64,000 nucleotides of DNA from Escherichia coli (GCF_024700885.2 NZ_CP117016.1); one strand, 5' to 3'; counted from the stretch's first letter, positions 8,370-28,566 are shown. A program made the numbers and translations. Notes: generated by a model from the letters alone, not told the origin.

Positions 8370-8381
8370 GTGACATGTCAC
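8370..8381. repeat. 12-bp perfect palindrome GTGACATGTCAC (copy 1)
   Basis: Identical 12-mer also at 28555-28566. Confidence 0.8.
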
Positions 8382-8674
8382 GTTCCTTTTCTGAATGATA
8401 GCCATTCGAAAAATGATGACATTCCACCGCAGACAATAGCAAAGATGATCCCACCAAAGAAGAGAAGGCCAGCCTGCCACCACTCCCACCGCCATACATC
8501 CACAGCGCCAACCATACCAACAATCGCTCCAACAAATGGAATATAGCTCACGATGAAAGCGATGGGGGCTGCAATTATCCAGTGCAATCCCCACCATGAT
8601 TCAAGCCCAGCCATAATTGCTGCCAACTGAAAAAGACCAACGACGATATAAACAATGAATCCTATAGCTTGCAT
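8378..8674 (-). CDS. small integral membrane protein (98 aa), moron between ejection proteins and tailspike
   Basis: Three hydrophobic helices, Trp-rich; AGGTGA Shine-Dalgarno; preceded by a further ~50-codon hydrophobic ORF without ATG start (about 8700-8850). Confidence 0.55.
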   Translation of the reverse strand: MQAIGFIVYIVVGLFQLAAIMAGLESWWGLHWIIAAPIAFIVSYIPFVGAIVGMVGAVDVWRWEWWQAGLLFFGGIIFAIVCGGMSSFFEWLSFRKGT

Positions 8675-8869
8675 GTAGTCACCTATTTACCCAGTAAAAA
8701 TAAGAGGCCTCCCCTCAATAAGGCTTGCAACAAGAACTACTCCCTGCACAACAAAGATGAACCAGCAAATAGCTTGAGTCTGAGGGTTAAGAAAATATTT
8801 GTAGCGGTCAATAAATAACAATCCACCAGAAATTATCACACTCAAAATAATTAAAAACACAACACTTCC

Positions 8870-11344
8870 TTATTGCGGAGTGACATCCTGAGGTCGCCAC
8901 CAGTATGTCTGGTTAAACTCTTTCTTCGAACGTTGCTCCATTTTACGCAAATAGCCTGGTGAAAAATACTCCTGCATCTGGTTAAAGATCATGTGATCGA
9001 GAGCCGCCTTCAAGTACCAGAGATTCGCACCAGGCATCAAACCTTTCCCCAGCTTCACCAGATCACCACCAGTCTGCTCACTCTTCCCTTCCACAGCATT
9101 TAACGGTATGCCCTGAGCAATCTTCACTACGTCATCAACCAGACCAGCTACCGGGCCAAGCATCGACGCCAGCGCGCCGCTTCCGTACCTAGTGTGATCT
9201 GACAATAAAAAGTCACCGTACAGGCCAAGACCACCACCTTTCAGTAGAGCACCAAGCCAGAATTTTGCGGCATCTTCTCCTGTCATCTCTCGAGGATTAC
9301 GACCAGACGCAAGGTCGTTAAGTTGCTGCGACAAAGCGCCAAGAATGGTCGTACTGGCAATAAACGTCGCAATATATGCCGCACGCCCACCAGCAGACGG
9401 CATACCCATAGCGCGTGACCAGTGACGCATAACAACCGAGATAGGGAACGATTTAAACAGGAAAACACTTCTCGTTAATTCACCTTTCCATGTTCCACGC
9501 TGAATACCAGAACCGGTTATCAGTTGCTCACGTGCTCCCGGTGTAATAACAGCCATATCAACTTCTTCAGTTACGGCACCGAGCAGTTTACGCATTGCCT
9601 CAAATTTCACGCGTTCAGGCTCACCAAGATGTTTAACTGCTGAATCAGGGATACGCATAATGCTTTCCGGCGTCAGCATCGTATTATTACCGTTCCCCCA
9701 GTCCTCCTGTTGCGCCAACTTCCATACGCTCCAGTCTGTGTCAGTAATCCCTTTGCTTTTCAGGATACGAAAATCAGAGTCATCAAGGCTACGAAGGTCT
9801 GGTGTCCGTGACACTACTTCTCCCAGGCTTCCCATCATGGTTACGCCATAGGCGCGCTTGTGCGCATCTGACCATGCTGTAAGCCCACTGGCACGCATTA
9901 CCGCCGTTGCCGCCCAACGAGACACTGACGGCCCCATATTATCCATCGCCCAGCGGTTAACGCTGCCAAGTAGAGATTCCATCGCCAGACCAGCGCGGCG
10001 CGCCCGCACAAGTTCTGTACGGTTCGTTGGGTCCATAGCTTCAAGCTGGTTGCGGAATAACTGGTTCATTGGAAGGTTGGTAACCTTCGCAGACAGATAC
10101 ATGGTTCCAAGATCAGAGAACGATGACAGCAACGCGGATCCGAGCCTGCTGGCAACCAGCCAGTTGCGGATATTGTCAGACCATCGCGCGATGTGCGGAT
10201 TCGCTACAGGCTGTGTCTTTCCGGAAATAAAGTTGTACAGATTCTCTGTGTTGTTCGCCAGCCGCTCGACTTTACCGGTTTTACTCGGGTTAGCTGTTGC
10301 CGTTTCTGCCTTAACCTGATCAAGAAGGGAGCGGAAAACATGATCGGGGTTTGGACCATATGTTTCCACCAGAGCAATATCTTTACTGATACCTTCCAGG
10401 TGACCGACCATGATTTCCCATAGAGAGCGATCGCCATAAAGTTGTTGATATTGGAGATAGGAATCTGCATCTTTGAAATGTATCTGTCGTGATGCATTAC
10501 CACGGTTAGCACGTGCGCCGGAAATTCGCATTCCGGTATCAGTAAGCTTATTCAGCCCACCAGTAGCGATCGTGTTATAAGCCTCTCCAAGAAATGCAGA
10601 CAACTCGGCATCGTTCATCAGTTGTCCATCGGCTCTGGTATAATATTTGCGATCCAGCTTACCTATAACATCGCTAACCCACTTATCCTTTGATACCGCC
10701 CCAACCTTTTCCATAGAATGATGTTGAGGGATCCCCCAGTTTTCGAGATAGCCAATGTCCCCACCAGCATCATTAAACCGGCGGCGCAGCAGCTCTGCAA
10801 CTTCTCTCCACGCTTTAGCACCTTTTCTTGCTTTAGCATTGCCAGTATTTTGCCCCCGCATTTCATATACCAGGTCACGTACGCCCGCTTCATCTTCAAA
10901 CAGGCCAAAAAAGCGAGGATCAACTGCTTCAAATGCCTCCTGCAATTGACTCAATGCATAATCACGAGTGGCTTTTGTTCTGGATTCAACAGAGAGGAAA
11001 TTCGATTTACCGTCTGCATTAAAAGCAATAGTACGGTTAAGAGCGCCAAGTTTCCCATCAGCCCCTTGATAGCTATTGATAAATTTATCCAATCTCTGAC
11101 GTGCGGCTATAGTGAGAGCCACACGACGTTTCTTTAATGCCGCTTCTCGCTGTAATTCTTCAGATGCCAATTGTGCTGCACGATACAACCGTTCTGATTC
11201 GGAAAGTTGTCGCCACGACATCGGGTCATCACGAGCAATGGAGCGCATATTTCGATAAATGCGGTCTTCAATGTTCTGTATTTCTCGCGCCGTTAACGTG
11301 CGCTGCGCCGCCTGCTGGACCGCTTGTATACATTCCTGTCTCAT
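8870..11344 (-). CDS. internal virion / DNA-ejection protein (824 aa)
   Basis: Large protein in the gp15/gp16 position of a T7-like virion operon. Confidence 0.55.
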   Translation of the reverse strand: MRQECIQAVQQAAQRTLTAREIQNIEDRIYRNMRSIARDDPMSWRQLSESERLYRAAQLASEELQREAALKKRRVALTIAARQRLDKFINSYQGADGKLGALNRTIAFNADGKSNFLSVESRTKATRDYALSQLQEAFEAVDPRFFGLFEDEAGVRDLVYEMRGQNTGNAKARKGAKAWREVAELLRRRFNDAGGDIGYLENWGIPQHHSMEKVGAVSKDKWVSDVIGKLDRKYYTRADGQLMNDAELSAFLGEAYNTIATGGLNKLTDTGMRISGARANRGNASRQIHFKDADSYLQYQQLYGDRSLWEIMVGHLEGISKDIALVETYGPNPDHVFRSLLDQVKAETATANPSKTGKVERLANNTENLYNFISGKTQPVANPHIARWSDNIRNWLVASRLGSALLSSFSDLGTMYLSAKVTNLPMNQLFRNQLEAMDPTNRTELVRARRAGLAMESLLGSVNRWAMDNMGPSVSRWAATAVMRASGLTAWSDAHKRAYGVTMMGSLGEVVSRTPDLRSLDDSDFRILKSKGITDTDWSVWKLAQQEDWGNGNNTMLTPESIMRIPDSAVKHLGEPERVKFEAMRKLLGAVTEEVDMAVITPGAREQLITGSGIQRGTWKGELTRSVFLFKSFPISVVMRHWSRAMGMPSAGGRAAYIATFIASTTILGALSQQLNDLASGRNPREMTGEDAAKFWLGALLKGGGLGLYGDFLLSDHTRYGSGALASMLGPVAGLVDDVVKIAQGIPLNAVEGKSEQTGGDLVKLGKGLMPGANLWYLKAALDHMIFNQMQEYFSPGYLRKMEQRSKKEFNQTYWWRPQDVTPQ

Positions 11345-27851: not shown

Positions 27852-28522
27852 TGATTACCATCCTGACGTTCTTTGAGTCGCTTCCTGGCTGCTGCTATGC
27901 GATCAGCAATTGTCACATTCACATTAACATCCAGACGTTCTTTGAACGCGTTGACATCAACATGCTTACCAATCAGCTCAAGGTTCTTCACCTTGTCAGG
28001 CCATTTAATTTTTTTGAGGATTGTCTCTATCGAATCCTCGTTCATGTTCATGATGGTCGATGACAGATCAAAGCCACTAAGCGTAGTGCGCCAGATTTTC
28101 GGCCACTCGCGGATTGGCTTAAGGCTCCCATCGTCGTTGAGGATGTCGATCACATCCATCTGGTCGATCTCCACCAGGCGCATAAGAACGTAATCGGCAC
28201 TGACGCGCATTCGTTTGTTGCGCTCCTCCATCAGCTCGGCAATCCGTTTTTGAATGCGTTCATCGCGCATCATGACACTGGCTTTAACTGCCGCTGTATT
28301 TGGGGAGAATCCTGCGTTAATCGCTGCCTGAGTCTGGTTTTCAGGCGTTTTGATGTATGACTGGCAATAAGCCTCCTGCATTGCTGTTAGTGGCTTAAAT
28401 TGCGTTGATTTGCGTTTATAGGTTTTAGGTTCAGCAGGCATCATAACCACCGTGGTAATAGTTACCGTTTTGGTAATAGTACCATGCAAAACAAAGCCGC
28501 CATAGTTGGCGGCAGTATTCAA
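27848..28522 (-). CDS. terminase small subunit
   Basis: Overlaps terminase large start by 4 nt; start may instead be the MMPAEPK Met at 28444. Confidence 0.6.
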   Translation of the reverse strand: MNTAANYGGFVLHGTITKTVTITTVVMMPAEPKTYKRKSTQFKPLTAMQEAYCQSYIKTPENQTQAAINAGFSPNTAAVKASVMMRDERIQKRIAELMEERNKRMRVSADYVLMRLVEIDQMDVIDILNDDGSLKPIREWPKIWRTTLSGFDLSSTIMNMNEDSIETILKKIKWPDKVKNLELIGKHVDVNAFKERLDVNVNVTIADRIAAARKRLKERQDGNQ

Positions 28523-28554
28523 AACCCATCAAATTCATCATGCATAATCTACTC

Positions 28555-28566
28555 GTGACATGTCAC
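28555..28566. repeat. 12-bp perfect palindrome GTGACATGTCAC (copy 2)
   Basis: Identical to 8370-8381; sits immediately upstream of the terminase small subunit gene. Confidence 0.8.

Follow-up and report, generated by a model that had tools for sequence, protein, structure and literature searches.

We describe here a 12-bp perfect palindrome, GTGACATGTCAC, which occurs at two places, 8370–8381 and 28555–28566, in a 64,000-nucleotide stretch of Escherichia coli DNA (GCF_024700885.2, NZ_CP117016.1; the whole stretch is called the window). Both copies lie in a phiV10/epsilon15-like (Uetakevirus) prophage that takes up ~40 kb of the window and has its late genes on the minus strand. We observed that the palindrome accompanies the gene of a small cysteine-cluster (Cys-cluster) protein through phages with unrelated terminases, virion modules and replication systems, and that the gene and the motif are a portable pair. 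From the sequence data, the two copies are probably the cognate operators of the protein encoded at 28563–28904 (minus strand), through which it would control transcription at operon borders.

The palindrome and the Cys-cluster gene occur together

Homologues of the Cys-cluster protein were found in N15 (gp46), phiKO2, ZF40 (gp22), P2-like Yersinia, Vibrio and Aeromonas phages, as well as in Mu-like and lambdoid prophages. In the phage collection searched, the hosts of these homologues are Enterobacterales, Vibrio and Aeromonas only. N15, with a 35% identical homologue, has three copies of GTGAC-TG/CA-GTCAC, one of which is on the stop codon of gp46 in the same G-TGA-C register as in the window. 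The myovirus ZF40, with a 66% identical homologue, has exactly three copies of GTGACATGTCAC, one of them 2 nt past the gp22 stop. One exact and one single-mismatch copy, 33 bp apart, are present in the P2-like Yersinia phage vB_YenM_42.18. The Vibrio phages K303 and L172 have three copies each, one of which lies 11–19 nt upstream of the terminase small-subunit gene, terS. We also observed two tandem copies in L173, one copy in L297, a one-mismatch copy with the G-TGA-C overlap on the stop codon of the homologue in L298, and an asymmetric variant of the 12-mer, present twice, in L300.

Over 11 sequences, 25 exact GTGAC-NN-GTCAC sites were counted, against 0.27 expected from the local 5-mer counts. 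In the same sequences, half-sites at all other spacings (0, 1 and 3–8) gave 3 occurrences when pooled and the swapped arrangement gave none. P2, which is without a homologue, has no copy of GTGAC-NN-GTCAC. The half-sites GTGAC/GTCAC never change and the spacer is always 2 bp, while the central two base pairs (AT, TG/CA, GC or AC) and the flanks are variable, the consensus being a 14-bp dyad, YGTGAC-NN-GTCACR.

An unbiased scan of IMG/VR with the exact 14-mer TGTGACATGTCACA returned a homologue within the short flanks at 21 of 80 loci, and in 14 of those 21 the site was no more than 24 nt from the 3′ end of the gene. Altogether, the gene and the motif occur together in at least six independent phage backbones. 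The terminases found alongside the motif are Terminase_2 (Uetakevirus), lambda-like Nu1/A (N15 and L174), the P2 gpM/gpP type and Terminase_4 (Vibrio), and the virion modules and replication systems of these phages are likewise unrelated. Therefore, the motif belongs with the gene and not with packaging. The initial annotation of this DNA had proposed a packaging-related site near terS, and this proposal is not supported, as the motif tracks the Cys-cluster gene across unrelated terminases, mostly far from terS. In the literature searched, we did not find the 12-mer itself, nor a study of this protein family or of the pairing of the protein with the site.

In vB_YenM_42.18 (L090, 8073–11730), the homologue and the palindrome pair flank a large Smc-like ATPase gene, and the homologue occupies the variable region between gpA and the portal gene. 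This slot of P2-like phages is known to carry accessory and defence genes.

Copies in the window and their chance level

An exact search of the whole window returned the two copies named above, at the places where they had been described, and no third one; the shuffled window gave no match. Near-copies with one or two mismatches (at 23182 and 25838) are at chance level. The identity shared by the two copies extends to 14 bp, TGTGACATGTCACG, which is on the plus strand at copy 1 (8369–8382) and on the minus strand at copy 2, so that the copies are in inverted orientation. The contexts originally reported for both copies, namely the open reading frames (ORFs), the terminator, the LexA box and terS, were also located as claimed.

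The accompanying statement that two copies are unlikely by chance holds in part. Had the 12-mer been specified beforehand, two copies would indeed be very unlikely. However, a repeated perfect 12-bp palindrome of some kind was present in 53 of 1000 Markov-1 simulations of the window. Judged from the window alone, the pair is thus weak evidence (p ∼0.05), because the motif was picked after being seen. A second repeated perfect 12-bp palindrome, TTTTTGCAAAAA, is found at 30289–30300 in the prophage and at 43746–43757 in host DNA. It is AT-rich and of low complexity and is probably a chance pair, which indicates that repeated palindromes are not rare. The significance of GTGACATGTCAC comes instead from its conservation in other phages.

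Conservation in Uetakevirus relatives

Conservation in related prophages had been named at the outset as the test by which the motif could fail, and it turned out to be strong. In phiV10, an E15-like Salmonella phage and the Enterobacter phage Tyrion, the flanking DNA is 77–87% identical to the window. Copy 2 (site A), copy 1 (site C) and a third site, B, located 3 nt past the terL terminator, are kept in all three phages. The copies are exact, except that the terS-proximal copy of phiV10 is degenerate (GTGACATGTTAC). Among IMG/VR relatives, site C is present in 80 of 80 (73 exact, 7 with one mismatch) and site B in 66 of 80. Site A is present in about all of the 80 close relatives, and it is still at the stop of the Cys-cluster gene in the 22 in which a small ORF has been inserted right after it.

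The hairpin and the palindrome at site C are a conserved unit, found in at least five upstream and several downstream contexts in these 80 relatives. Around sites B and C, unrelated alternatives, at least 5–6 of them, replace the DNA on one flank or both right up to the motif, so that the sites stay fixed where mosaic modules join. The three Uetakevirus sites adjoin the three intrinsic terminators located between the regulator gene and the end of the morphogenesis operon. Overall, 8 of 26 sites are within 40 nt of a predicted terminator, compared to 8.8% of random positions. A general association with terminators was nevertheless rejected, as the signal comes nearly all from Uetakeviruses.

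The Cys-cluster protein is a predicted ribbon-helix-helix DNA binder

The candidate binding protein, to which the initial annotation had also pointed, is encoded at 28563–28904 (minus strand; 113 codons, or 112 amino acids from the ATG at 28901), in the gene that ends the early-right (nin-like) operon. It is the counterpart of phiV10 p55, epsilon15 gp49 and N15 gp46, and belongs to phrog_536, 'transcriptional regulator'; it has no Pfam family. We aligned 57 sequences of the family, down to ∼28% identity. From the N-terminus, the conserved elements are a basic helix (ERKxxQRxR), a short strand, a pair of helices carrying PY..EY..LI, a linker helix and a C-x2-C...C...C cluster.

The AF2 model (pLDDT 91.5) consists of a helix, a strand region, a helix and a long helix. 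Its best structural matches are ribbon-helix-helix (RHH) proteins, whose strand-helix-helix fold it has. The sequence matches to this fold are sub-threshold (NCBIfam YbfE with E = 0.05; Pfam RHH_5 and RHH_1 in 1–2 of the 57 members), and none of the Pfam RHH models reaches threshold. Residues 48–109 are weakly similar to TraR/DksA zinc-finger proteins (E = 0.03 for the profile against PDB; hhalign probability of 61%). A TraR-like match was not found by Foldseek, and zf-dskA_traR is absent among the 25 listed of 42 sub-threshold Pfam families. The protein is confidently modelled as an RHH DNA binder with a zinc-ribbon-like C-terminal region. The weak RHH_5, RHH_1 and YbfE matches point in this direction too, and the protein is a plausible sequence-specific dimeric DNA binder. 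Proteins of this fold bind DNA, as a rule, as a dimer on a short duplex with two-fold symmetry. The invariant half-sites, the fixed 2-bp spacer, the variable centre and the Y...R flanks of the dyad fit this mode.

Surroundings of the two copies

Site A (copy 2, 28555–28566; exact match) overlaps the TGA stop of the Cys-cluster gene and is ∼116 nt upstream of the likely ATG of terS (28444). Between the Cys-cluster gene and terS, our scan showed a terminator-like hairpin, GCCGCCAACTATGGCGGC, followed by TTTGTTTTG (28487–28513, minus strand), which begins 41 nt downstream of the palindrome. This hairpin is kept in phiV10, the E15-like phage and Tyrion, with a varying spacer to the palindrome. The terS gene (27848–28444, minus strand) is likely to start at ATG 28444 or 28441, in agreement with the alignment and with the annotated start and ribosome-binding site (RBS) of Tyrion. 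In the long ORF, the Pfam Terminase_2 match begins at residue 45. Uetakevirus terS-terL is bracketed by sites A and B, and in the Vibrio phages a site immediately precedes terS; a regulatory link of the palindrome to terS expression is possible.

We made some further observations in this region. The hairpin GCCGCCGACTATGGCGGC with its T-run is tandemly duplicated between the palindrome and terS at the record end/start of the E15-like phage (L005; OR757455.1). A non-coding block from the hairpin to the terS ATG (28444–28486, minus strand) contains GTACTATTACCA and GTAACTATTACCA, a pair of direct repeats 18 nt apart. Conservation of this block among phiV10, the E15-like phage and Tyrion comes close to that of coding DNA, and the block may represent a terS leader, a promoter element or something related to pac. 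Between terL and the portal cluster, the variable moron region has a tRNA gene (25570–25643, plus strand; Rfam tRNA, 71.7 bits), and beside it a 115-amino-acid ORF (25943–26290, plus strand) that occupies the place of the moron and site B of most relatives. The window prophage carries another moron, with the tRNA gene, after terL and is without site B.

Site C (copy 1, 8370–8381; exact match) is at the 3′ end of the ∼20-kb morphogenesis operon. The last gene of this operon encodes a small membrane protein of 98 amino acids (8378–8674, minus strand; phrog_3075, a family without an assigned function), the TGA stop of which (8378–8380) falls within the palindrome. The operon is closed by an intrinsic terminator (8344–8369, minus strand; scan and fold), consisting of the hairpin GGCCGCTTTCGCGGCC at 8352–8369 followed by TTTTCTTT. 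The hairpin (−18.7 kcal/mol, z = −3.2) is 0–1 nt from the palindrome and has its T-run on the minus strand. Read on the plus strand, it has no T-run and is directly followed by the palindrome. Both window copies share the G-TGA-C register, each holding the TGA stop of a minus-strand gene (8378–8380 and 28563–28565). As the dyad has a TGA on both strands, genes can extend right up to it.

From the other side, an antirepressor-like ORF (phrog_450, with an additional weak match to the anti-repressor phrog_1760) converges on site C. A perfect LexA box, CTGTATAAATATACAG, at 8052–8067 is inside the long ORF call (7966–8346). The true start of the gene is therefore probably downstream of the box, which places the box upstream of the gene and suggests SOS-controlled induction via the antirepressor. 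At the border of the prophage is a 525-amino-acid ORF (40557–42134), which is probably guaA. Phages of this family integrate at the 3′ end of guaA (PMC9782041).

A second dyad precedes the other late clusters

A different dyad, approximately AACCAyATATGGTT, was observed 7 nt upstream of −10-like hexamers that precede the tailspike gene and the portal and lysis clusters; the immunity region has it as well. Motif scans placed dyads of this type at 3525–3538, 7958–7971, 25181–25194 and 34207–34220 in the window, at 3309, 20922 and 24740 in phiV10 (L004), and at 4026, 26456, 34219 and 35389 in Tyrion (L006). With up to three mismatches, it occurs seven times in the window against 2.2 expected. It is probably a prophage repressor operator or a shared late-cluster promoter architecture. 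The same scans did not find it upstream of terS, and terS-terL is the only late unit without it.

The portal, tailspike and lysis clusters are thus preceded by this dyad and not by the palindrome, which argues against the palindrome being a general late-activator site, as had been proposed in the initial annotation. That terS-terL is without the second dyad and is bracketed by sites A and B suggests that the palindrome acts on transcription across operon borders, including terminase expression.

A model for the action of the protein, and what weighs against it

We propose that one RHH dimer would occupy each dyad, with its β-ribbon in the central major groove and its basic helices on the outer GTG/CAC. 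The protein would be made as the last product of the early-right operon. It would then occupy the site at its own stop codon, before the terminator that divides the early genes from terS-terL, and also the site beside the terminator that closes the morphogenesis operon at its far end, where the SOS-controlled antirepressor-like transcript would converge. The bound protein would function as a roadblock or insulator across operon borders, limiting early and antisense read-through and in this way setting terminase expression. The effect may be of either sign, that is, read-through could be blocked or promoted.

Several observations weigh against this proposal. We infer the assignment of the protein to the site from their co-occurrence, and in L299, a Mu-like carrier of a homologue, a convincing site was not found. 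The linked site is at or after the stop of the gene and not at its promoter, so that it is not an operator over the protein's own promoter; such a 3′-end site is atypical for an autoregulating RHH repressor. Sites also occur inside genes, in repA of N15, in gp08 and gp12 of ZF40 and in a parA-like gene of L172. Proximity to terminators is almost wholly a Uetakevirus property, and none of the N15 and ZF40 sites is that close to one. Site B is absent from this prophage and from 14 of the 80 relatives, and is hence dispensable. Finally, 22 relatives translate an ORF that starts 9 nt after site A; transcription therefore crosses the site, which argues against a tight roadblock. Bearing on the mechanism are also the intragenic sites, the terminator proximity that is not general and a promoter-hexamer geometry that is not conserved. 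We consider control of the roadblock/insulator type to be most likely, and a late switch similar to that of phage Q proteins to be the main alternative.

Alternative explanations

In a Q-like late switch, the protein would load on RNA polymerase at a promoter overlapping the palindrome and cause read-through of the terminator, thereby turning on terS-terL or the lysis/late genes. In phages without a recognisable Q, the gene is indeed in the place of Q, being the last or next-to-last early-right gene before terS or the holin gene, and a sense-strand terminator lies between the site and the first late gene in Uetakeviruses, L172, L297 and K303. The half-site hexamers GTGACA/GTCACA resemble a −35 element, with a −10-like hexamer 17–18 nt further on in the window and in L297. 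E15 and Tyrion have GTGACA-N17-TAAATT, both window copies score as GTGACA-N18-xATGAT promoters, and the promoter matches the consensus at only 9 of 12 positions. TraR-family proteins bind RNA polymerase, and the weak TraR/DksA signal in the C-terminal half of the protein (E = 0.03 and 61%, as given above) would fit such a role. However, the distance between the dyad and the putative −10 differs by 6–7 bp from one lineage to another, and sites B and C lack a conserved −10. In N15 and the Vibrio phages, the next ATG is 11–19 nt from the site, too close for a promoter to fit, and in 22 Uetakevirus relatives an ORF begins 9 nt past the site. A promoter was rejected as a general explanation on these grounds, since neither site B nor phiV10 site C has the −10 and the distance to an ATG is 9–19 nt at some sites. 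Moreover, N15 and ZF40 have bona fide Q-like genes of their own, and their late promoters carry no site. The protein has no Pfam, NCBIfam or PDB sequence match to the Q families (Q-lambda, Q21 and Q82), and Foldseek gave no TraR-like match. We regard a Q-like switch as unlikely. The related idea that the phrog_536 proteins are a hitherto unrecognised class of transcription-elongation or late-switch factor, in which the RHH domain would dock on the dyad and the TraR/DksA-like zinc module would engage RNA polymerase starting at or passing the site, to decide whether a neighbouring terminator is obeyed, is equally doubtful.

That the motif is a recognition site (pac or cos) for terminase is very improbable. 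One copy is ∼116 nt upstream of terS and the Vibrio site is closer still, and the GenBank record of phiV10 is linearised within the palindrome. That cut follows the stop codon of the last gene and is thus a matter of annotation, not a mapped end, so that we rejected the record start as a genome end; neither read data nor a published mapping of Uetakevirus virion ends was found in the searches made. The motif occurs 2–3 times per genome, up to 20 kb from terS, and in N15 (which has a lambda-like cos at the other genome end), ZF40 and the P2-like phage it is far from unrelated terminase genes. In phiV10, it is the terS-proximal copy that is degenerate (GTGACATGTTAC) and the distant copies that are exact. 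A site for host MatP, or a mimic that disturbs Ter-macrodomain organisation, is hardly more probable. In the collection searched, homologues occur only in phages of Enterobacterales, Vibrio and Aeromonas, the clade that has MatP. The half-sites are identical to those of matS, a 13-bp site, GTGACRNYGTCAC, with a 3-bp spacer (PMC6907758). All 25 exact sites, however, have the 2-bp spacer, against one 3-bp-spaced copy in the 11 sequences. The hhalign probability for MatP was 0.25%, MatP is absent from the profile-versus-PDB matches at E ≤ 10, and the motif tracks a phage gene, which already accounts for its presence.

An RNA element, in which a hairpin GUGA-CAUG-UCAC would be bound by the arginine-rich N-terminus of the protein or would act with adjacent terminators, has a similarly small chance of being correct. 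The N-terminal helix, ERKAAQRARQ, is like arginine-rich RNA-binding motifs, and many sites are transcribed, intercistronic and just before an RBS. On the other hand, the hairpin has −2.7 kcal/mol and 20 of 200 shuffles fold as well, and a 5-bp stem would force an impossible 2-nt loop. The stem is invariant between lineages and does not covary, Rfam gave no family match at the site, and the two-fold symmetry, including the Y...R flanks, together with the RHH fold fits double-stranded DNA. Least probable of all is that the motif is functionless, that is, a chance repeat, a restriction, methylation or homing target, or a passive patch of homology at recombination junctions. About 5% of random windows hold a repeated 12-bp palindrome, sites B and C coincide with mosaic junctions, and the phage encodes an adenine methylase. 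Against this is the exact conservation across genera and unrelated backbones (25 sites versus 0.27 expected). A functional site that is conserved would also better account for the junctions being where they are. The central bases, including CATG, vary between lineages (AT, TG, GC or AC), so that there is no fixed restriction or methylation word. The RHH gene is the only consistently co-occurring gene, and no gene of a nuclease or methylase is linked to the motif in this way. The target of a site-specific nuclease or methylase, which the initial annotation had also put forward, is not supported for these reasons.

Discussion

The palindrome is a probable cis-target for a widespread phage protein family without a Pfam model, which includes the N15 and epsilon15 proteins and spans phages of Escherichia, Salmonella, Klebsiella, Yersinia, Pectobacterium, Vibrio and Aeromonas. 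In epsilon15-like phages, the sites mark the borders of exchangeable modules, namely the terminase unit, the moron slot and the antirepressor slot, and these borders bear on the control of terminase expression and on the upkeep of mosaic junctions. In genome annotation, the motif is not to be labelled pac or cos. If the protein were an elongation or late-switch factor after all, phages would have in it a fourth way, analogous to Q, of switching from early to late genes.

The pair can be compared with several known systems. It resembles lambda-type Q with its binding element, pR′ and tR′ in the order of parts, as the last early gene is followed by the site, a promoter-like sequence and an intrinsic terminator before the late genes. 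It differs from Q in having no homology to it, in its loose site-promoter geometry and far sites, and in coexisting with a true Q in N15 and ZF40. The C-terminal half of the protein, a long helix followed by C-x2-C...C, aligns weakly with TraR, one of the TraR/DksA C4 zinc-finger proteins (F TraR, P2 Orf82), the genes of which are common in phage early regions. Unlike them, the protein has C-x2-C followed by C-x-C and C, and a fused RHH domain.

MatP-matS of E. coli shares with the phage pair an RHH-containing protein, inverted GTGAC/GTCAC half-sites and few dispersed sites. The phage pair differs from it in the 2-bp spacer, in the density of sites (2–3 per 40 kb) and in the lack of detectable sequence homology, only the generic RHH fold being common to both. 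The C-terminus is a predicted zinc ribbon in the phage protein and a coiled coil in MatP. The C-terminal domain of MatP dimers mediates further interactions, and by analogy it is a possibility that the phage protein bridges its 2–3 sites and loops out the terminase/late region. The identity of the half-sites with host matS also raises the question of cross-talk with MatP.

There is also a resemblance to the RHH (Arc/MetJ/CopG) repressors and their dyad operators, such as P22 Arc and Mnt, CopG, AmrZ and the antitoxins TacA and ParD, in the predicted fold, the small size and the short symmetric site in few copies, with the gene adjoining one of the sites. The phage protein differs from these in the extra C-terminal Cys cluster and the conserved basic N-terminal helix, and its sites differ in that the linked one is on the stop codon and the others are kilobases away, at operon ends or in genes. 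As a probable RHH regulator-operator pair, the system is of a known kind; what is unusual in it is the domain fusion, the site on the stop codon, the dispersal of the sites and the matS-like half-sites.

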